From: a virus
Direction: 5' to 3' (one strand)
IMG/VR virus record: IMGVR_UViG_3300023093_000033
Location: 1-6,858 of that record
DNA length: 6,858 nucleotides
The notes beneath the pieces are model-generated. The model did not search any database. It had not been told where the DNA came from and saw nothing but the letters and a program-made list of their open reading frames with translations. The position numbers were made by a program, and so were the translations under genes. This document shows, one piece after another, positions 1-6,858 of the stretch (position 1 is the first letter of the stretch; each line of letters starts with the position of its first letter).

Positions 1-127
1 TTTGACGCTGGTTTTACCGCCGTCTGTGTTGTCAGTGGTTTTAACAGTGCTATCTATTTTGATTCCGTTGCTAGAAGGAGGTTTATTAACGCAAGTACGA
101 ACGCCATTCATCGTACCGCACGTTTGC
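1..127. repeat. Terminal redundancy, copy 1 (identical to 6732-6858); assembly overlap of a circular molecule
   Basis: Base-by-base comparison shows that tttgacgctggttttaccgcc...catcgtaccgcacgtttgc is identical at both ends. The repeat starts exactly at nt 1 and ends exactly at nt 6858. Confidence 0.97.
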
Positions 128-927
128 TTGCCGTCCTTCTGGGTTTCAGTCTCGGAACTACAGCTAACGGAACCGCCAGAGCCAGAATAAACACATGGCT
201 TGTCAGTAGTGGAGGATTCTTCTTTTATTGGAGTACAAACACCGCCATCGCACGCGGCGTCTTTTGCATCAACAACGTTAGTCTGATTATTAACATTGCC
301 AGTAAGCTTGCCAATGACATTGCAGGTAACAGCACCTTTGACGTTAGATACGCAGTCACTGCTGGATACAACGGAAACTTCACAGCTGGTACCAGCCTGA
401 GCAAAGCTAGGAGGCGCAGATGGAACACCGCCATCCCAAGTACCTGCAACTTGATAGGCAGAGCCGGAACCACCTTGAGAGAACATATACTTGCAAGTGG
501 GCTCCTCACTGGAATCAGTGAAATTTACGCACTTGCCGGCCTTACCATCAAAAATCATAGGATCACCGGGCCCTTTAGCGCCGGTTTGATCTTCGCACTT
601 TTCGCCATCTTTCAAATTGGGAACGCAAGCACCAATAGAGCCGTTAAAGGTCGTATTGGCGGGGCAAGAGTTACCATCCATAATAACACTCGTAAATCCA
701 GATAACTTATCGTCATTGCCCTTACGCATGCAGTTCCACTGGTTAGGTGCCGTACTGACAGTGGAATGCAAAGAATAGCCGTAAAGCGAGGCTGCTCCAT
801 CACAAGCCGCAGAAAGCGACCCGTAATGACGGGCAGGACCATAGACAGTATTATACCAGTAATAATCTACCGCAAAACTAGAGGACGAAAGGAACAACAG
901 GCTGAAAGAAAGTAAGAACTTGTACAT
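1..927 (-). CDS. gIII: pIII-like adsorption / minor coat protein, N-terminal 309 codons; continues across the circular junction into 6731..6207, 483 aa in total
   Basis: I split the plus strand into triplets from nt 1 and found no tta/cta/tca up to the cat at 925-927 (ATG on minus). The frame is continuous with ORF 6207..6842, since 6842-6731=111. The N-terminus MYKFLLSFSLLFLSSSSFA|VDYYW is a typical Sec signal peptide, followed by Cys-rich domains. The gene lies directly after the coat-gene terminator, as gIII does in Ff phage. It is not in the supplied ORF track because no stop lies inside the window. Confidence 0.85.
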   Translation of the reverse strand, partial: MYKFLLSFSLLFLSSSSFAVDYYWYNTVYGPARHYGSLSAACDGAASLYGYSLHSTVSTAPNQWNCMRKGNDDKLSGFTSVIMDGNSCPANTTFNGSIGACVPNLKDGEKCEDQTGAKGPGDPMIFDGKAGKCVNFTDSSEEPTCKYMFSQGGSGSAYQVAGTWDGGVPSAPPSFAQAGTSCEVSVVSSSDCVSNVKGAVTCNVIGKLTGNVNNQTNVVDAKDAACDGGVCTPIKEESSTTDKPCVYSGSGGSVSCSSETETQKDGKQTCGTMNGVRTCVNKPPSSNGIKIDSTVKTTDNTDGGKTSVK

Positions 928-953
928 AAAAAAACCCCCGAAGAAACCGGGGG
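928..953 (-). terminator. Rho-independent terminator downstream of the major coat gene
   Basis: The minus strand reads CCCCCG-GTTTCTT-CGGGGG followed by TTTTTTT. The stem is 935-940 paired with 948-953, the loop is 941-947, and the T-run is 934..928. The position matches the strong terminator after gVIII in Ff phages. Confidence 0.85.
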
Positions 954-1043
954 CTGAAGTTAGAGATATTCAGCGCACCGGATACCTGAAACCAGTGCGC
1001 TAGCCATGATGATGCCAGCCAGCGCGGACCAGATCACCTGGAA

Positions 1044-1286
1044 TCAGACTTTACGAACGAGTGCAATAATCACACCGACGACGCAGAGCGCGGCCACACA
1101 GGCTACAACAGCAGCACCGACAGTTTCACCGCTGGACTGAGCTTCAGCAATTGCAGTAGTAGCGCCGTCAGCAACACCAGCAGCAAAGCTGGAGCCGGCA
1201 GCAACGAAAGCACCAACGCCAGCGATACCAGCAGCCAATTTGCGGAAGGTTGGAACGGATTTGAACTTGGAGATTTGTTGTTTCAT
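1044..1286 (-). CDS. gVIII: Major coat protein precursor (80 aa), Pf1 CoaB-like
   Basis: ATG at 1286 is preceded by AGAGGTG. The leader MKQQISKFKSVPTFRKLAAGIAGVGAFVAAGSSFA resembles the Pf1 precoat leader as I recall it (MKAMKQRIAKFSPVASFRNLCIAG...). The predicted 45-aa mature protein, AGVADGATTAIAEAQSSGETVGAAVVACVAALCVVGVIIALVRKV, has an acidic N-terminus, a hydrophobic core and a basic C-terminus. The GTG at 1295 in the ORF track is probably not the start. Confidence 0.9.
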   Translation of the reverse strand: MKQQISKFKSVPTFRKLAAGIAGVGAFVAAGSSFAAGVADGATTAIAEAQSSGETVGAAVVACVAALCVVGVIIALVRKV

Positions 1287-1287
1287 G

Positions 1288-1545
1288 TCAAACACCTCTG
1301 CGCATTTTGCGCAACTGAGAAATGATAATACCGACTGTAAAACCGACGACGAATAACATTATCGTTCCCATAAAGAACTGCATAAATGTGTCGCCATCAA
1401 AACCACCTGTAATCACAAGTTCCAATTGGGCTTGCTGGTCAGGTGTCACAACATAAGTTTCCGTCCAAGCCTGAGACGAACACGAAATAACACCCTCAGT
1501 TGAGGTTGAAAATTGAGTGCAAGTTAAAACAGACTGAGACGGCAC
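1288..1545 (-). CDS. Hypothetical membrane protein (85 aa, GTG start); possible minor coat (pVII/pIX-position) protein
   Basis: Fills the gap exactly between the upstream stop (1546-1548) and the coat gene. GGAG lies 10 nt upstream of the GTG. The C-terminal MQFFMGTIMLFVVGFTVGIIISQLRKMRRGV is a TM helix plus a basic tail. The position corresponds to gVII/gIX of Ff and to the small ORFs before coaB in Pf phages. The start codon is uncertain. Confidence 0.55.
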   Translation of the reverse strand: MPSQSVLTCTQFSTSTEGVISCSSQAWTETYVVTPDQQAQLELVITGGFDGDTFMQFFMGTIMLFVVGFTVGIIISQLRKMRRGV

Positions 1546-1740
1546 TTATTCAATACTCCATGAATGCTGAGTACTAGAGAGTTTAACCACCTCGGAAGCA
1601 TCATAACAATTTGGACAAACACAAAAATGAGGAGGAACACTAAGTTTGTCCAGACCATCTCGACGAACAGCATTCATAGAGAACAACTGACCGACCACGC
1701 AATAGCAAAAATCGCAAACAACACGGTCGATCAGCAACAT
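1546..1740 (-). CDS. Hypothetical small Cys-rich protein (64 aa), zinc-ribbon-like CxxCxC...CxCxxC
   Basis: The ORF starts 2 nt after the stop of the upstream gene (TGA TC ATG) and ends immediately before the next gene. Cysteines sit at CDFCYC and CVCPNC, about 30 residues apart. I recognise no homolog. Confidence 0.55.
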   Translation of the reverse strand: MLLIDRVVCDFCYCVVGQLFSMNAVRRDGLDKLSVPPHFCVCPNCYDASEVVKLSSTQHSWSIE

Positions 1741-1742
1741 GA

Positions 1743-2081
1743 TCAGCTAGCCGCCTGTACAGGTTTAACAAGTTGAACATTCAGGGCCTTGCCGTCACCG
1801 GCAAGCCAATAATCAAAGCCTGCATTACCGGCTTTACTTGCCCAGGCACCAACAAAAACAGGAATCGAAACGTTTTTACCCTTCATCTGATTCCAAGAGT
1901 TGTTTAGACCAGCTTCCATATGCTTTTTAGAAAGCTTGACGGCAACCGTCTTGACCTCAGGAATACCATACTGATTAAGTTGCTCAACCTCAATCAGCAC
2001 CTGATTGTCAGTGAACGTATTGGAGCCAATCTGGCGTGTATTAGAGTTGAAACCATGGCAAAGACCAAGTAATACGAGCAT
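1743..2081 (-). CDS. Putative ssDNA-binding protein (gene V position), 112 aa
   Basis: ATG at 2081 is preceded by GAGGT with a 6-nt spacer. It is the first gene downstream of gII, where inoviruses encode the ssDNA-binding protein. Function is assigned by position and size only. I see no similarity to Ff gVp. Confidence 0.45.
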   Translation of the reverse strand: MLVLLGLCHGFNSNTRQIGSNTFTDNQVLIEVEQLNQYGIPEVKTVAVKLSKKHMEAGLNNSWNQMKGKNVSIPVFVGAWASKAGNAGFDYWLAGDGKALNVQLVKPVQAAS

Positions 2082-2131
2082 ATTCTTACCTCACAGGTTT
2101 TTAAATTGGCATCTATGGCCGTGTAAATGAA

Positions 2132-2476
2132 TTAAGCAGCCTCTAAACGAGGTTCAACATACCAAGTAGGACGCTGCATACTGAAATCAACTTGAAGAAA
2201 CCTAAGAATTGGAACGACATTATTCTTATGCTCATCAACTTTTAGCTTCTGCAATGCAGCTTTACTTAATCCGCATTCACAAATTTGGGCAACATGACGG
2301 TAAAACGTAGGTCTAGCCATGGAATCCATGGTTTCTTGCCATCCGTAGTCTTTAAGACTGCGGTAGGTGCGAAACAGGTTAAGAGGAATGGTTTCATTGA
2401 CCTTGCCTTCCTTACCAAATTTGGTAAAGCGTGCTTTAAGTGCGGCCAGCACTTTGTCATCATTAATTACTCTCAT
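2132..2476 (-). CDS. gX: Nested in-frame gene X analog (C-terminal 114 aa of pII)
   Basis: The in-frame Met in FEGISMRVINDD aligns with the M13 pX start in FEGDSMNIYDD. GAAGG lies 7 nt upstream of ATG 2476, encoded by the same conserved FEG codons that form the SD for gX in Ff. Confidence 0.55.
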   Translation of the reverse strand: MRVINDDKVLAALKARFTKFGKEGKVNETIPLNLFRTYRSLKDYGWQETMDSMARPTFYRHVAQICECGLSKAALQKLKVDEHKNNVVPILRFLQVDFSMQRPTWYVEPRLEAA

Positions 2477-3367
2477 GGAGATACCTTCAAAGGCCGCAAA
2501 CAATTCTTTTGTAACCTGTTGCCAACACCATTGAATAAAGCAGGTGCCTTGAGACTCTAATTGCTCTTGATACTCACACAATTCAATCAAGGTAGTAGGA
2601 ATACCCTTGCGATCAAGCCAGCGATGCATAACAGTCGCTTCGAGTCGAACTAGGTTTTCAGACCATGTTTGAAGTTCAGGATTCTGCAAAACAGAAAGAA
2701 CGCGTTTCGCGGAAAGGTTACCTCCCCTTGAAGCCTTAAGAGTTTTCTCAAGCTCATTGCGAAATTCAGGACTCTTAAGATAAGCCTTCAGCTTTCGAAG
2801 GCGGGTTTCTTTACTACCCCAATAGGCAGTGGTTTCATAATCATCACCCCGGTTTCTAGTCTGGCCATTGCTAACGCCACGTAGAGCTTGCATAAGTTGA
2901 AGCGCTGTACGCTCATCAGGAACCCTCGACGAATAAGTGCAGTCCAAGCAATAGACTTGAATATTGGGAATATCAAGCTTTTGAAACAACTCGGGATATG
3001 AACCAGCAAGCCACTTAAGCATGACCTCAGCACCGAGCCGAATCGAAGTCGGACCAAAAACATTATGGCCCTGCAATAACTTTGCTGGGCTAGCTTTCAA
3101 CTCGACACCGGGCGTCATACGTTTGCCCAGGGACTGGTGAAAAACCTTCACCGCCATCGGGGTAAAGCTGGTAGGCAACGACTCCCAAGCATGACTCAGA
3201 TCCTCGACCACGTAGCCGCCTTGACCGTCCGAAAAAACGGACGTTGCCCGCATCGGTATACCGAGCGTGGCAAGGTCTACAGTCAAAGAATGGTGACGAT
3301 CAACGTCGCCTACGATGGTGATCGCGTCCGAGCGAAACGGGATAAACATATGGATCTTGTCTAGCAT
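2132..3367 (-). CDS. gII: Replication initiation protein, Ff gene II homolog (411 aa)
   Basis: Several blocks match M13 pII as I recall it. MLDKIHMFIPF matches MIDMLVLRLPF. VELKASPAKLLQGHNVFGPTS matches VEIKASPAKVLQGHNVFGTTD. LRGVSNGQTRNRG matches LRNVSNGQTKSTR. ELFAAFEGISMRV matches ELFKAFEGDSMNI. NNVVPILRFLQVDFSMQRPTWYVEPRLEAA matches NNVVPLVRFINVDFSSQRPDWYNEPVLKIA. The start is set at ATG 3367 by this N-terminal alignment. The 14 extra codons in the ORF track (to 3409) come from ATGs inside the GCATGCATGC palindrome. Confidence 0.93.
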   Translation of the reverse strand: MLDKIHMFIPFRSDAITIVGDVDRHHSLTVDLATLGIPMRATSVFSDGQGGYVVEDLSHAWESLPTSFTPMAVKVFHQSLGKRMTPGVELKASPAKLLQGHNVFGPTSIRLGAEVMLKWLAGSYPELFQKLDIPNIQVYCLDCTYSSRVPDERTALQLMQALRGVSNGQTRNRGDDYETTAYWGSKETRLRKLKAYLKSPEFRNELEKTLKASRGGNLSAKRVLSVLQNPELQTWSENLVRLEATVMHRWLDRKGIPTTLIELCEYQEQLESQGTCFIQWCWQQVTKELFAAFEGISMRVINDDKVLAALKARFTKFGKEGKVNETIPLNLFRTYRSLKDYGWQETMDSMARPTFYRHVAQICECGLSKAALQKLKVDEHKNNVVPILRFLQVDFSMQRPTWYVEPRLEAA

Positions 3368-3491
3368 GGTTGGCTTCCACATCCCATTGCATGCATGCAT
3401 GCAAATCACAATGATGAGGAATGTATACGTGCACGCATGTATACGTCAACACAAGTCACATGCATGCACGTACACTTTTGGAGGTTTTCTG
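3368..3491. promoter_or_regulatory. Divergent promoter/operator region between gII (minus) and the small regulator (plus)
   Basis: Contains an 18-bp perfect palindrome TTGCATGCATGCATGCAA (3387-3404), a direct repeat ATGTATACGT at 3421-3430 and 3437-3446, the palindrome CGTGCACG (3428-3435), and TGCATGCA again at 3461-3468. A candidate gII promoter on the minus strand has -35 TTGACG (3449..3444), an 18-nt spacer and -10 TACATT (3425..3420). The promoter assignment is tentative. Confidence 0.6.
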
Positions 3492-3707
3492 ATGATAGGT
3501 AGTGGCACCATGCCAGCAACGCTGAGGCTGTCAAACGCAGAACAAGAGCTTTTGCGTAAAAAATGCATAGATATCAATAAGTTATTGATAAAACAGGGTG
3601 CTCAACCGATAAAGGATAGTGAGCTAGCCCACTTTTTGATTGAAAAATCAGTAACTTACGTTGAGGTTGGCAGTGATGGAGTGCTGACTCTGGAGCCAAA
3701 GGCTTAA
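3492..3707 (+). CDS. Small putative DNA-binding regulator / repressor candidate (71 aa), ribbon-helix-helix-like pattern
   Basis: GGAGG lies 7 nt upstream of ATG 3492. This is the only convincing plus-strand gene, and it is divergent from gII, like rstR in CTXphi. TLRLSNAEQELLRKK...IKDSELAHFLIEKS fits a beta-strand, helix, turn, helix RHH pattern loosely, with helix A longer than usual. The upstream part of ORF 3315..3707 overlaps gII and the operators and was rejected. Confidence 0.6.
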   Translation: MIGSGTMPATLRLSNAEQELLRKKCIDINKLLIKQGAQPIKDSELAHFLIEKSVTYVEVGSDGVLTLEPKA

Positions 3708-3728
3708 GAGTCGAAACCACCCCCAAAT

Positions 3729-3769
3729 TCTCACCATGAGACAAGAGTCCACCATTAGAGATAGTGGAC
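3729..3769 (-). other. Plus-strand origin of replication core: pII nick-site hairpin plus adjacent palindrome (f1 hairpins D/E equivalent)
   Basis: The minus strand reads GTCCAC-TATCTCTAATG-GTGGACTCTTGT-CTCATGGTGAGA. The f1 ori as I recall it reads GTCCAC-GTTCTTTAATA-GTGGACTCTTGT-TCCAAACTGGAA. The 6-bp stem core is identical (f1 pairs one more base), the 11-nt loop size is the same, and the 12-nt GTGGACTCTTGT is identical. The downstream palindrome TCTCA-TGG-TGAGA (3741..3729) stands in place of GTTCCA-AAC-TGGAAC. By homology to TCTTT/AATAG, the predicted nick falls between 3757 and 3756 on the minus strand. Confidence 0.85.
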
Positions 3770-3796
3770 CCGGCTGCGCCGGCCTCAAGCAAAACC

Positions 3797-3850
3797 TCTC
3801 CGCCTTCGCTCCGAAGAGGGGCCAAGCCCCTCCGCCCTTCGGTCTACCCC
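3797..3850. repeat. Intergenic direct repeat, copy 1, with a GC hairpin (GAGGGGC-CAA-GCCCCTC, 3816-3832)
   Basis: Shares TCTCCGCCTTCGCTCCGAA, AGGGGC..GCCCCT and CTACCCC with copy 2. An outer CCGAAG/CTTCGG pairing (3811-3816 with 3837-3842) is also possible. Confidence 0.8.
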
Positions 3851-3890
3851 AGATTCCACAAATGCCGCCTGCGATGCCAGACAAATACAA

Positions 3891-3939
3891 TCTCCGCCTT
3901 CGCTCCGAACAGGGGCTCGCCCCTGCGCTGCGCTACCCC
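3891..3939. repeat. Intergenic direct repeat, copy 2, with a GC hairpin (CAGGGGC-TC-GCCCCTG, 3910-3925)
   Basis: The 19-nt core TCTCCGCCTTCGCTCCGAA is identical to 3797-3815 and lies 94 nt from copy 1. It sits 5' of the plus origin in viral-strand sense, where Ff phages carry the minus-origin and packaging hairpins. Confidence 0.8.
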
Positions 3940-4035
3940 GAGGTGCTGGAATTTCGAACCTGCCGGGACCAAACCTCATAGCGGTGCTGTAGACACGCCA
4001 AAACAAAGCTTGGGTAATCAGGGTGAAAAGGTGTT

Positions 4036-4266
4036 TCAAAGATCGAGGATTGACCTGCAAGCGGTCTGGAGGGCTTCTAGACGCTGATCGAGGTGCAAGG
4101 CCTCACTATCGAGCTGCGACAGCCTAGAGCGCATCTGACGAGCTTCGGCTACAACCCGGGGATAATCAGCCAGGCAGTAGCAGACGGCGTCGAGAGGATC
4201 ACGTGACGGCGCGTACAACTGGGCGTCACGAATAAGGTTTTCGGGGATCAGAAGAGGCTTACGCAT
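4036..4266 (-). CDS. Hypothetical 76-aa protein (uncertain gene)
   Basis: The ORF is on the coding strand and has a non-low-complexity sequence with a heptad-like C-terminus (LSQLDSEALHLDQRLEALQTACRSILDL). Against it, no SD precedes ATG 4266, the ATG lies inside a dif-like arm, and the local GC-rich DNA generates long ORFs in several frames. Confidence 0.35.
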   Translation of the reverse strand: MRKPLLIPENLIRDAQLYAPSRDPLDAVCYCLADYPRVVAEARQMRSRLSQLDSEALHLDQRLEALQTACRSILDL

Positions 4267-4349
4267 AATACGGTCTATGTTACGCGACCCGTGGTGCCAG
4301 AGGCAGTTTCCACAGGTCGCTCAACATAAACCGGGCCATTATGCGTACC
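4258..4349. other. Two inverted dif-like sites forming an imperfect 92-nt hairpin: candidate XerCD-dependent attP of the CTXphi (folded ssDNA) type
   Basis: Site A, on the minus strand 4349..4319, reads GGTACGCATAA-TGGCCCGGT-TTATGTTGAGC. Site B, on the plus strand 4258..4285, reads CTTACGCATAA-TACGGT-CTATGTTACGC. E. coli dif as I recall it reads GGTGCGCATAA-TGTATA-TTATGTTAAAT. Arm identities are 10/11 and 8/11 for site A and 8/11 and 7/11 for site B. In the fold, 4260-4268 pair with 4339-4347 (9 bp). An internal loop follows (4269-4270 against 4334-4338). Then 20 of 24 positions pair between 4271-4294 and 4310-4333. Confidence 0.6.
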
Positions 4350-4359
4350 TCCTTATAAA

Positions 4360-4500
4360 TCAATAGCTTACGTTCCAGCAACGAAATCTCCACCAATAAG
4401 CTGGCCGAGTTTCCTGCAAGAACCATTTCCAGTCGATCACATGGCAATTGTGAAGATCAAGACGCTCAAGGGTCGGATTGAATCGATACTGTTCTTTCAT
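4360..4500 (-). CDS. Hypothetical small Trp-rich protein (46 aa), translationally coupled to zot
   Basis: Hand translation gives MKEQYRFNPTLERLDLHNCHVIDWKWFLQETRPAYWWRFRCWNVSY, which is too short for the ORF track. The zot stop is followed by TGAGGTGATCTC ATG, and GAGGTGATC matches 9 nt of the anti-SD complement. I recognise no homolog. Confidence 0.45.
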   Translation of the reverse strand: MKEQYRFNPTLERLDLHNCHVIDWKWFLQETRPAYWWRFRCWNVSY

Positions 4501-4509
4501 GAGATCACC

Positions 4510-5841
4510 TCAATTCGCGGTCGTAGTTGTCGAGGTTTTTAGCGTCCTGCTTGAATCAGCAACGACGGTATATGACGCACCCTGATATTTGGCCTTGTTC
4601 GCCGTATCTGCTGGCTGTGGAGCTTGGGAAGCGACAAAACGAGGCTGGCCAACGACGGCGGCTCGCTCTGCACCGAGCCGCTCACCGCCGCCGTTGGCAG
4701 TTGAAGAACCTGAACAAAGAACGAGACGACTACCGCCCGGAAACGTCAGTTCGGCCACACACGGGCCGCGGGAAATGATGCCATAGCCTGAGGCAATCAT
4801 TTCACGAGACGTGTGCATAAACGATCGATCATCTTTGCTCAGCTGGAACGCAAATAATGTGCCCTGGGATTCGGTGCTGATACTGCCCTTGATCACGATG
4901 TTAAAGGCTGCGAACGGATCAGATGTCACGCTAGGAGGCGGCAAATTCTGCTGATCAGGTACGCTATCAGGAGCCACGTGAACAACTTTGACAGGACCTT
5001 GAGGCACAGGATTTTGAGCAACTGGAACACCGGCTTTAGCACCCTGAATAGAGAGCGGATTATGAAACGGATTACCGTCATTACGCCAAAACACAAAGCC
5101 AACAATAAGTACCAATACTCCGAGGAGCATAAAAACGCGCGGAGACGTGAGGGCGTTTTTGCCCGCCATGGTGTCTCGATGGAGTCCGGTGGCTGTTGAG
5201 TCATAGAGTTGAAATACCCGCTTATCAATTTTGCGCAATTGAACGATGTTGGAGCCATCTGTAGGCGCTTTATTCTCCTGAGCGCTATGCATCGACTCCT
5301 TATAGTCCTTTGAAACAAGCTTCTTCATCCATTTACCAAGAAGCATGAGATTTGAGTGCTGGTAAGCAGCCTCAGACGTATTGCGGATATCCGTATGCAA
5401 GTACTTGATATTGGGCATCGTCAAAATGATGTCCCAGTTAAAATGCCGGTGCATCGTCCAGGCAGAGAGCCAGTCGGTAGGTTTGTCCTGAGACTTCGCC
5501 TTGTCTGGACCGCCGGGGTAATCGAAACGCTCAACGTATTTATCAGACCATTTGCTAGGAAAAATAACCTGTGCTTCATCGAATATCAGAAAGGCGTTTC
5601 GCGGAGCCCATTGAAACCAAGTTCTAATCCGTTCCAAGCCTTCTGCGGATTCGTGGCTAATAAACTCAACATCAAAAGTATCAGGCAGATCATCAAACAA
5701 AGCTTCGAAACGCTCACGAGACATCCCTCGAACATTGGTAATAATCAATCGACCTTCTTTTGCAGCCGGGACAGCATCGTCCCACACCGCACCGGAGGTC
5801 TTATAAGAACCATTAGGGCCATGATGAATTTTAATCGCCAT
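4510..5841 (-). CDS. zot: Zot-like assembly ATPase (Ff pI functional homolog), 443 aa
   Basis: The N-terminal half matches V. cholerae CTXphi Zot as I recall it. IHHGPNGSYKTSGAVW matches IHHGAPGSYKTSGALW, the deviant Walker A typical of Zot. Other shared motifs are ITNVRG, the Walker B FLIFDEA, MHRHFNWDI against MHRHHGWDI, MPNI against TPNI, and DTMAGK against DTMAGT. A single TM helix (VFMLLGVLVLIVGFVFW) is followed by a roughly 190-aa periplasmic domain. Confidence 0.93.
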   Translation of the reverse strand: MAIKIHHGPNGSYKTSGAVWDDAVPAAKEGRLIITNVRGMSRERFEALFDDLPDTFDVEFISHESAEGLERIRTWFQWAPRNAFLIFDEAQVIFPSKWSDKYVERFDYPGGPDKAKSQDKPTDWLSAWTMHRHFNWDIILTMPNIKYLHTDIRNTSEAAYQHSNLMLLGKWMKKLVSKDYKESMHSAQENKAPTDGSNIVQLRKIDKRVFQLYDSTATGLHRDTMAGKNALTSPRVFMLLGVLVLIVGFVFWRNDGNPFHNPLSIQGAKAGVPVAQNPVPQGPVKVVHVAPDSVPDQQNLPPPSVTSDPFAAFNIVIKGSISTESQGTLFAFQLSKDDRSFMHTSREMIASGYGIISRGPCVAELTFPGGSRLVLCSGSSTANGGGERLGAERAAVVGQPRFVASQAPQPADTANKAKYQGASYTVVADSSRTLKTSTTTTAN

Positions 5842-5843
5842 GA

Positions 5844-6197
5844 TCAGCTAACTCCGGGAATGAATTTCATTGCCCAGCGAGTGGGAATGGCGGAAAAGAT
5901 AAGCGTCAGGCCTTGAGGAATCTTGAAGAAAGCCAACATGGATTGAATATTGCCGGGGATAGATGCCCACGCGGATTTAACCAATTCAGTTACCCCGCTC
6001 TCGCGTAAAAGCTCCTGGATAACCTCATAAGCCACATCAAGCATAAGAATCTTGAACTGAAGGAACGAATAGATTAAAGCTTTCGTAACAATGACCAAAA
6101 GCTCTTTAGTAAACGTATAAATGCCGCTATCCATAAAATCCCAAGCAGCCTGGAAGAAGCCAGTAACACTACCCATCCACGAAATAATAAAATCCAT
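5844..6197 (-). CDS. gVI: pVI-like minor coat / assembly membrane protein (117 aa)
   Basis: Lies between the adsorption gene and zot, as gVI does in Ff and the 116-aa ORF does in Pf phages. The size (117 aa against 112 in M13) and the hydrophobic segments fit. GAGGA lies 6 nt upstream of ATG 6197. The stop is 2 nt before the zot ATG. Assigned mainly by position. Confidence 0.7.
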   Translation of the reverse strand: MDFIISWMGSVTGFFQAAWDFMDSGIYTFTKELLVIVTKALIYSFLQFKILMLDVAYEVIQELLRESGVTELVKSAWASIPGNIQSMLAFFKIPQGLTLIFSAIPTRWAMKFIPGVS

Positions 6198-6206
6198 ATC
6201 AAATCC

Positions 6207-6858
6207 TCAACCAAAGACAATCATTAATGCAACCATGGCGCACAAAGCATAAATAGCAGCGGAAATCCAAGAGAGAGAACCCGCATATTTATCCAGACAA
6301 AAATCTATTGAGCGGCCCATGACAGTAACGGCAGGTGGGCAATACAACTCCCCTCCTCCTCCTAAAGTAATGTCGCCAATGGGTGTAAAGGCTTCTTTAA
6401 GCTTGGCAAGATCTTCTTTCAGCTCAGTTTTGGAGTCGGCAATCTTTTGATCCCAGATATCGCCTTCACCATCAAAGGAATCATTTTCAGGATCACTTAA
6501 ACCGGCACCATCACCAGAACCGTCGCCTTCGCCATCACCGGAACCAGAGCCATTACCTGTACTGCCACCAGGCTTAATGCCTGTGCCGCTGTCACCACAA
6601 GCGCCAGTACACTTAGTGTCGGTTGAAGTGGTTTGCCCAGAGCCGTTAGTTTTGGTTGTCGTAGTGGTAGATGAAGTCGTCGTGGAGCATTTGTTAATGC
6701 CTGTGCAAGTAGTCTTGGTTGCGTTATCCGTTTTGACGCTGGTTTTACCGCCGTCTGTGTTGTCAGTGGTTTTAACAGTGCTATCTATTTTGATTCCGTT
6801 GCTAGAAGGAGGTTTATTAACGCAAGTACGAACGCCATTCATCGTACCGCACGTTTGC
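6207..6858 (-). CDS. gIII: pIII-like adsorption protein, C-terminal part (174 unique codons plus stop in 6207-6731; 6732-6858 duplicates 1-127)
   Basis: Contains a Thr/Ser-rich linker (CSTTTSSTTTTTKTNGSGQTTSTDTKC) and a Gly/Asp-rich linker (GGSTGNGSGSGDGEGDGSGDGAG). The C-terminus is a hydrophobic anchor (LSWISAAIYALCAMVALMIVFG). The M listed at 6842 is internal, because the frame stays open upstream through the circular junction. Confidence 0.85.
   Translation of the reverse strand, partial: QTCGTMNGVRTCVNKPPSSNGIKIDSTVKTTDNTDGGKTSVKTDNATKTTCTGINKCSTTTSSTTTTTKTNGSGQTTSTDTKCTGACGDSGTGIKPGGSTGNGSGSGDGEGDGSGDGAGLSDPENDSFDGEGDIWDQKIADSKTELKEDLAKLKEAFTPIGDITLGGGGELYCPPAVTVMGRSIDFCLDKYAGSLSWISAAIYALCAMVALMIVFG
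6732..6858. repeat. Terminal redundancy, copy 2 (identical to 1-127)
   Basis: Same as copy 1. A 127-nt length is typical of a final k-mer overlap from a de Bruijn assembler (inference). Confidence 0.97.

Follow-up and report, generated by a model that had tools for sequence, protein, structure and literature searches.

The 6,858-nucleotide (nt) stretch of viral DNA analysed here (IMG/VR record IMGVR_UViG_3300023093_000033, positions 1 to 6,858; hereafter the window) carries a 98-nt element in which two inverted dif-like sites are predicted to fold into a forked hairpin. We posit, with a probability of roughly 0.85, that this element is the attachment site of an integrase-less filamentous phage and that it works like the attP(+) of CTXphi. 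A sequence-only reading of the window had proposed such a CTXphi-type site, used by the host's XerC and XerD recombinases as folded (+) single-stranded DNA (ssDNA), and the identity of the viral strand, the covariation of the two sites, their strand bias and the chromosomal junctions of related prophages support this interpretation.

The window represents a circular genome of 6,731 nt whose first 127 nt recur without change at its end (terminal redundancy). The inovirus genes lie on the minus strand and one small divergent regulator on the plus strand, with the hairpin downstream of zot and ahead of the divergent regulator and gene II. The sequence-only reading had placed the element in this way, in an intergenic region; the position relative to the genes stands, but the region is not purely intergenic, as two open reading frames (ORFs), ORF46 and ORF76, flank or overlap the element. 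Searches of all sizeable ORFs against Pfam and PHROG returned pII, a G5P-like ssDNA-binding protein, the major coat protein, a pIII-like protein, a DUF2523 (pVI-like) protein, Zot/pI and small unknown proteins; none of the scanned ORFs gave an integrase, recombinase or transposase domain, in agreement with the earlier claim that the phage encodes no integrase.

Anatomy, fold and covariation of the paired dif-like sites

The element is composed of the following parts, given in window positions, with arms compared with published dif sequences (PMC2731167):

4254..4351, minus (viral) strand: whole forked hairpin, candidate attP(+), 98 nt, delimited by DNA fold, conservation and covariation
4339..4349, minus strand: site A XerC arm GGTACGCATAA, 10/11 identical to the E. 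coli dif arm GGTGCGCATAA
4330..4338, minus strand: site A central region TGGCCCGGT, 9 nt; the XerC-proximal TGGCC is the bubble and the XerD-proximal CGGT pairs with site B
4319..4329, minus strand: site A XerD arm TTATGTTGAGC, 8/11 identical to the dif arm TTATGTTAAAT and 10/11 to the CTXphi attP1 arm TTATGTTGAGG
4286..4318, unstranded: stem extension (9 bp) and apical loop, the 33 nt separating sites A and B
4258..4285, plus strand: site B, attP2-like, composed of CTTACGCATAA (4258-4268), TACGGT (4269-4274) and CTATGTTACGC (4275-4285)

The centre of site A begins with TG, the first two bases of the dif centre TGTATA, and the predicted XerC cut lies 3' of A4339 (GGTACGCATAA^TGG, the caret marking the cut). 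Site B contributes its complement as the bottom strand of the hairpin; its spacer is 6 nt long with a centre unlike that of dif, and its XerD arm matches the CTXphi attP2 arm TTATGTTACGG at 9 of 11 positions. The XerC arms pair over 9 bp in the fold. Beyond the bubble, a stretch of 24 positions made up of the four XerD-proximal spacer bases, the XerD arms and their flanks contains 20 Watson-Crick pairs, the rest being three G.T wobbles and one A.G mismatch. The XerC-side bubble sets 5 nt (TGGCC) against 2 nt (TA); the minimum-energy fold pairs a T-A and a G.T here, and a 3-nt bulge remains. The sequence-only reading had given these pairing counts, the inverted pair at 4258-4349 with spacers of 9 nt and 6 nt lying 33 nt apart, and the 10/11 match of the site A XerC arm, and all of them proved correct on recount and on comparison with the E. 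coli arm.

Folding calculations predict a forked hairpin in which the XerC and XerD arms are duplex and a region on the XerC side is unpaired. The ssDNA fold of the minus strand reaches -33.7 kcal/mol (z = -9.0, with 0 of 200 shuffles as good) and that of the plus strand -28.5 kcal/mol (z = -7.2), and no other 100-nt window of the entire viral strand is as stable as the hairpin (z = -5.5 relative to all windows). Two occurrences of the pattern ACGCATAA-N6-9-YTATGTT were counted, where 200 shuffles give an expectation of 0.00. These shuffles, together with the z-scores of the fold, exclude chance as the origin of the element.

The packaged strand is indicated by the orientation of the genes and by an Ff-like origin of replication, which lies with the replication gene as follows:

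3741..3769, minus strand: (+)-strand origin core GTCCACTATCTCTAATGGTGGACTCTTGT, 25/29 identical to M13 GTCCACGTTCTTTAATAGTGGACTCTTGT around the gene II nick site
2132..3364, minus strand: gene II replication initiator, Ff/IKe type, matching Phage_CRI (PF05144, E = 1e-48) and G2P_X_C (PF05155, E = 2e-15)

The origin core scores 42 in alignment on the minus strand against 22 on the opposite strand and includes a GTCCAC...GTGGAC hairpin, and approximately 70 nt around it are 86-93% identical to the corresponding region of P. aeruginosa phages 42-1 and NEU2023 and of Phage blackswan219-1. The pII protein is 38-39% identical to IKe pII over 99% of its length, 37-39% identical to that of f1/M13 and 58-64% identical to the pII proteins of the integrase-less Pf 42-1 and of phages NEU2023 and 5a-DAzarov, and shows no similarity to CTXphi RstA (E = 0.87). 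Based on these sequence comparisons, the replication module is of the Ff/IKe type, with a Phage_CRI/G2P pII and its cognate (+) origin core. With the minus strand as the packaged strand, site A reads from XerC arm to centre to XerD arm on viral DNA, and the wobbles can form.

The hairpin module is conserved beyond the window. A search of IMG/VR with a pattern built on the window's subtype (GCATAA-N6-12-TTATGTTGAG-N25-55-CGTAACAT) identified it in 34 viral contigs, most of them approximately 7 kb, all of which are predicted to take this forked fold. Alignment of 19 distinct family members shows pairs in 93.6% of the cells at paired positions, versus 32-47% when the partners are slid by 1-3 columns. 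Double-sided changes occur at 10 pairs, including 4/4 in the XerD-proximal centre and 4/9 in the stem extension; the last 4 nt of the site A centre are 100% paired, as are 98% of the cells of the stem extension (helix 5). The TG at the start of the site A centre is invariant among the 19 aligned members, and the 2-5 nt that follow are variable and unpaired; the site A spacer is 8-12 nt long in all members. Of 37 family members, 35 fold more stably on the strand carrying the top of site A, which is the viral strand; the difference averages 5.2 kcal/mol, with the G.T wobbles responsible, and the bias has the same direction in all 11 hairpins of two other sequence subtypes.

Junctions of related prophages at dif

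Homologues of the window Zot are overwhelmingly encoded by Pseudomonas, and tandem arrays of prophages without an integrase are present in three isolates whose Zot is 66-74% identical (P. alliivorans, Pseudomonas sp. PS02290 and P. huanghezhanensis). In P. alliivorans the left junction joins CTGGCGCATAA to TGTGTGGACGTTATGG, the junction between copies joins GGTACGCATAA to TGTGTGGACG..., and the right junction joins GGTACGCATAA to TGTATATTATGTTAAAT; the phage centre after the XerC arm begins with TGTGTGG. This pattern is repeated in PS02290, P. huanghezhanensis, Stutzerimonas chloritidismutans, Pseudomonas sp. LRF_L74, Pseudomonas sp. SJZ080, a mixed two-phage array on a contig from an assembly labelled Klebsiella pneumoniae, and several viral contigs; the predicted junctions are seen for relatives (Zot 57-74% identical) in at least eight genomes or contigs. 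The left junction (attL) consists of the host XerC arm followed by the phage site A spacer, and the right junction (attR) of the phage XerC arm followed by TGTATA-TTATGTTAAAT, a regenerated dif that corresponds to the published sites of P. aeruginosa (GATTCGCATAATGTATATTATGTTAAAT) and E. coli (GGTGCGCATAATGTATATTATGTTAAAT) (PMC2731167). Where the XerC arms of host and phage differ in their outer four bases, the host version stands at the left end and the phage version at each later junction. This distribution places the crossover between those four bases and the start of the centre, where the XerC cleavage site of site A lies. Site B is always intact within the prophages and is never the site of crossover.

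Tandem copies are present in L004, L006, L008, L010, L012, L110, L115 and L154, and L124 is an integrated copy that carries the window's own hairpin subtype. In a mixed array (L154; 6476-6568 and 13853) two unrelated inoviruses stand in series with one terminal dif. The successive copies in L110 and L133 differ mainly in the unpaired bubble of site A. The P. huanghezhanensis array is located at 2.92 of 5.74 Mb (51% of the chromosome); GC skew across this 21-kb locus, which is mostly prophage, shows no switch, leaving the map position as the only indication that the array lies at the terminus.

Based on these observations and by analogy with CTXphi, we propose the following route of integration. 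In the circular viral ssDNA (the minus strand of the window), pairing of site A with the complement of site B would give a duplex XerC arm, a 3-5-nt XerC-side bubble, a XerD arm with a wobble and a mismatch, and the stem extension. Host XerC and XerD would bind this dif mimic and bring it into synapsis with chromosomal dif; XerC would cut after GGTACGCATAA and one pair of strands would be exchanged, with the TG shared with TGTATA stabilising the exchange. We propose that XerD is unable to finish because the remaining centre is unrelated to dif and of a different length, and the pseudo-Holliday junction would be resolved by replication. The left end of the prophage would then consist of the host XerC arm, the site A spacer and the remaining hairpin, and at the right end the phage XerC arm, the host centre and the host XerD arm would regenerate a working dif, so that further copies could insert in tandem. 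Excision by Xer is not expected, because the site would be masked in double-stranded form; new viral strands would instead arise from tandem copies through rolling-circle replication by the gene II protein. We infer from CTXphi the binding of XerC and XerD, catalysis by XerC only, resolution by replication, irreversibility, and the use of ssDNA rather than a cruciform as the substrate.

Comparison with known Xer-dependent phages and alternative explanations

The CTXphi sites attP1 (AGTGCGTATTA-TGTGGCGCGGCA-TTATGTTGAGG) and attP2 (AATGCGTATTA-TACGCCA-TTATGTTACGG) (PMC3089051) form a forked hairpin (Val et al. 2005; Das et al. 2010; as reviewed in PMC3089051 and PMC4246890), and alignment of the window with them, which the sequence-only reading had suggested, reveals the same layout. 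Both phages lack an integrase, and in both a pair of inverted dif-like sites lies after the last morphogenesis or accessory gene and before a divergent repressor. In both, the spacer is long in the top-strand site (12 nt in CTXphi, 9 nt in the window) and short in the other (7 nt and 6 nt), the centres start with TG (top) and TA (bottom), and the XerD arms read TTATGTTGAG(G/C) and (T/C)TATGTTACG(G/C). Both have the bubble beside the XerC cleavage site and a fold favoured on the viral strand; the CTXphi record folds into the same shape over 152 nt, at -41.5 kcal/mol versus -36.3 kcal/mol on the other strand. Arrays of tandem prophages at dif, in which the right-hand dif is regenerated, are likewise common to CTXphi and, for the window, its relatives. 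The two Zot proteins are 36% identical over the N-terminal 258 aa. Because the XerD arms of the window differ from those of CTXphi at only one and two positions, the two hairpins share a G.T wobble at arm position 8 and an A.G mismatch at position 9, which arise from GAG opposite the complement of ACG (4319-4329/4275-4285 in the window; 3424-3434/3524-3534 in the CTXphi record, L152). In other hairpin subtypes, a flaw is likewise located at XerD-arm positions 5-9. These observations suggest either a function for the flaw or an exchange of the module among phages whose hosts are distant from one another.

The window differs from CTXphi in the size of the hairpin (98 nt with 33 nt between the sites, versus approximately 150 nt with approximately 90 nt between them), in its XerC arm, which is of the CGCATAA type of Pseudomonas and enteric dif sites rather than GCGTATTA, and in its Ff/IKe pII in place of the replication protein RstA. 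It lacks rstB, ctxAB and an RS1-type arrangement, has a conserved 76-aa gene that starts inside site B, and, unlike CTXphi, is known from sequence alone. Among IMEXs, mobile elements that integrate by exploiting Xer, the absence of an integrase, the two inverted non-canonical sites, the forked fold, the centre identity, and the dif junctions and tandem arrays of relatives would place the element with the CTXphi type. RS1, Ypfphi of Yersinia pestis and CUS-1phi of E. coli O18:K1 are listed as members of this type (PMC4246890), the latter two being credited with features for direct ssDNA integration (PMC3089051). As described in these reviews, on which the likeness rests, CUS-1phi and Ypfphi resemble the window phage as gammaproteobacterial inoviruses outside Vibrio that integrate at dif; they differ in host and belong to another lineage.

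The sequence-only reading had further held that a CTXphi-type site on an Ff-type replicon would be notable. The replicon type was correct, but the novelty is weakened by these listed CTX-type members and by the UPphi phages of Enterobacterales, close relatives of IKe and I2-2 that were published as tandem integrants at dif with only approximately the first 15 bases of dif repeated between copies (PMC7307601), so that the use of Xer by an Ff/IKe-type replicon is not new. UPphi thus combines the same type of replicon with Xer-dependent integration; it differs in that two inverted sites or a hairpin are not described in PMC7307601. A search of complete E. coli genomes with IKe gene II for a chromosomal UPphi copy returned three episomal, IKe-like replicons only.

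Within Pseudomonas, a large survey of Pf prophages found only integrase-carrying Pf and contrasted these with the Xer-dependent phages of other genera (PMC7549136), whereas Evseev et al. (2023) placed Pf groups 4-7, which lack an integrase, "in intergenic regions" and went no further than to suggest host recombinases (PMC10675462). The records of Pf 42-1, from these groups, and of phages NEU2023 and 5a-DAzarov (3/3) carry a two-site inverted dif-like hairpin downstream of zot, as in the window, and Pf 42-1 and NEU2023 also have the origin region in common with it; their hairpins differ in belonging to another subtype (TTACGTTAGG / TTACGTGTAAA), and ORF76 is absent. The Pf 42-1 record (L142, OR621020.1) opens with the two-site hairpin (1-114, -35 kcal/mol) and has 12-nt terminal repeats TTCGCATAATGT (1-12 and 7407-7418) that are composed of the P. 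aeruginosa dif XerC arm plus TGT. Our literature search, which did not cover subscription journals, turned up no account of a hairpin of the CTX type in a Pseudomonas phage.

Several points weigh against our interpretation. Prophages with dif-derived junctions, which the sequence-only reading had named as a line of evidence, were found for relatives in Pseudomonas and Stutzerimonas, but none of the window phage itself, so that integration may be claimed on junction sequences for the relatives and not for the window phage. An exact look-up of its Zot protein returned two circular metagenomic contigs of approximately 6.8 kb only, and a scan of metagenomes with the window site A sequence returned only a near-identical contig of 7,254 nt and no integrated copy. 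As read from their sequences, the junctions of relatives would fit folded ssDNA, a double-stranded site A or an extruded cruciform alike. The invariance of the XerD arms across the 34 contigs is imposed by the search pattern, leaving only the centre, stem and flanks as independent evidence. In some relatives with other hairpin subtypes only T is shared with the dif centre, which is less homology than the CTXphi rule usually calls for. Finally, an added role of the hairpin as a packaging signal is possible.

The alternative that survives best, itself very improbable, is integration of the VGJphi type, in which one of the sites would act alone as a duplex in the replicative form, with an exchange by XerC completed by replication and no part for the hairpin. 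VGJphi and TLCphi, like the window phage, depend on host XerC, XerD and dif without encoding an integrase. Their site is a single, double-stranded site of 28-29 bp and their integration reversible, with TLCphi using XerD first and requiring XafT (PMC4246890); the window has two inverted sites, an XerC-side crossover (in relatives) and no match to DUF3653 (XafT) among its ORFs in the Pfam scan. The junctions of relatives would be identical if double-stranded site A were the substrate, and site B does have a canonical spacer of 6 nt. The site found at the junctions is nevertheless site A, whose spacer is of a length that inactivates CTXphi attP1 as a duplex (PMC4246890), and the existence of a site B that is never crossed over is unexplained by a single-site model. 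A folded single-strand substrate predicts both the covariation of sites 33-50 nt apart and the strand bias, and a single duplex site predicts neither, leaving the co-varying centres and flanks and the one-strand preference of the wobbles unexplained. With two inverted, co-varying sites and a junction spacer of 8-12 nt, the element was not assigned to the VGJphi type of IMEX. Assignment to the TLCphi type was also rejected; the XerD arms are well conserved, the crossover is on the XerC side, the Pfam scan gave no DUF3653 hit, and ORF76 has no detectable relationship to a known family or fold.

Slightly less probable again is a purely structural signal (for packaging or morphogenesis, a minus-strand origin or a stop after zot) whose likeness to dif is incidental or vestigial. 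The hairpin occupies the place of the Ff/IKe morphogenetic hairpin, after the last assembly gene (as annotated in IKe), and is of fitting size; the viral strand has no other long hairpin, and what remains of the intergenic region folds no better than shuffles (z = -1.0). Such a signal would not account for dif arms that are invariant in the family, including the exact context of XerC cleavage and the TG, and relatives have demonstrably recombined with dif at that point. An intrinsic terminator, one of the alternatives that the sequence-only reading had set against its own proposal, was rejected; the stem is followed by AGCCTCTTCTGATCC with no T-run, and a terminator scan of 3300-4600 does not report the hairpin.

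The sites at which XerC and XerD act commonly serve multimer resolution in plasmids, and the window phage is seen only as an episome, but a cer/psi-like role in resolving dimers of the replicative form instead of integrating is the least probable of the alternatives, since resolution sites are single and double-stranded with 6-8-nt spacers and accessory sequences, the window has two inverted sites with spacers of 9 nt and 6 nt, and relatives with the same module are integrated at dif.

Neighbouring genes, ORF76 and the reach of the module

The remaining genes around the element are:

4510..5841, minus strand: zot, a gene I-like assembly ATPase (Pfam Zot, E = 1e-54), the gene upstream of the hairpin
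4360..4500, minus strand: ORF46, small, between zot and site A, 73-93% conserved in a narrow set of relatives
4036..4266, minus strand: ORF76, a conserved gene of 76 aa whose ATG is that of the site B XerC arm (TT-ATG-CG)
3492..3707, plus strand: putative regulator, 71 aa, divergent (PHROG 5642), with the same position kept in relatives

No family match to ORF46 was found in Pfam or PHROG. Comparison of the whole genome with deposited phages by megablast yields no more than a match of 8%, to Phage blackswan219-1, and, judged by this comparison, the window phage is undescribed. Known RNA families (Rfam) are absent from the window. The interval between the regulator and gene II (3385-3475) contains repeated ATGCATGCA palindromes and a tandem ATGTATACGT(G/C)(C/A)ACRC repeat (family D16), with a promoter-like site on the minus strand at 3449-3420, and is probably an operator/promoter region. 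A 26-nt direct repeat, TCTCCGCCTTCGCTCCGAA(G/C)AGGGGC, at 3797-3822 and 3891-3916 lies in G+C-rich sequence that forms short hairpins and separates the origin core from ORF76; the repeat may be a minus-strand origin or a set of binding sites, and the surrounding region, taken whole, is no better folded than its shuffles. A 21-nt inverted repeat (1250-1270 / 5617-5637, 20/21 complementary) connects the start of the coat gene with the zot gene, 4.3 kb apart, and is far above the length expected by chance in 6.7 kb; it was dropped from consideration, being missing from a 98%-identical relative (L129).

The association of ORF76 with the hairpin is highly conserved. Full-length homologues are encoded directly 3' of the hairpin at approximately 30 loci in differing phage backbones, and all 40 database homologues begin with MR because the start codon lies in the XerC arm; the gene was missed by the gene caller on the source contigs. 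ORF76 belongs to PHROG 13909 (E = 1e-30), a family of unknown function; family searches gave no match in Pfam, an E-value of 0.08 in NCBIfam and sequence matches to coiled coils only in the PDB. Its AlphaFold model (predicted local distance difference test score of 93) consists of one short and one long helix, for which Foldseek returned no match below E = 1. P. aeruginosa phages whose hairpin is of another subtype lack ORF76, which is therefore not a general requirement.

Hairpin and ORF76 homologue also occur together outside complete phages. A tandem mini-element of 1,654 nt lies at a Pseudomonas-type dif, beside the host XerC arm GATTCGCATAA (L134, 4305-5958, repeated from 5959; L130, 9150-10753) and contains a CTX-type hairpin, an ORF76 homologue and ORFs of 133 aa and 114 aa; gene II and structural genes are absent from it. 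A stretch of 140 nt of the mini-element is 98-99% identical to Pf1-like prophages of P. aeruginosa, at a position approximately 200 nt downstream of their zot, and the mini-element may be a satellite of Pf phages that parallels RS1 or TLC in Vibrio. We tentatively consider that the hairpin and ORF76 might constitute an integration cassette that is portable and has passed among unrelated inovirus backbones and into the 1.65-kb mini-element, with ORF76 as an accessory factor, but regard this reading as unlikely. In such a cassette, ORF76 might bind or stabilise the folded site, modulate XerC and XerD, or report the episomal or tandem state as opposed to that of a single prophage; the last of these is a positional argument, because a single prophage cuts the gene off from its upstream operon.

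Our interpretation of the hairpin as a CTXphi-type attachment site reveals no new mechanism; it would extend a known one, integration in the style of CTXphi, to a large and mostly uncultured lineage of Pseudomonas-type filamentous phages. It would also account for chromosomal entry by those Pf prophages of P. aeruginosa that were described in 2023 as lacking an integrase and for which the integration site had been left open. The dozens of natural site variants point to rules for the substrate (an invariant TG, a variable bubble, co-varying pairs on the XerD side, and a fixed wobble and mismatch in the XerD arm) and could guide biochemical work. For genome annotation, inserts of approximately 7 kb adjoining Pseudomonas dif would be read as tandem IMEX arrays.

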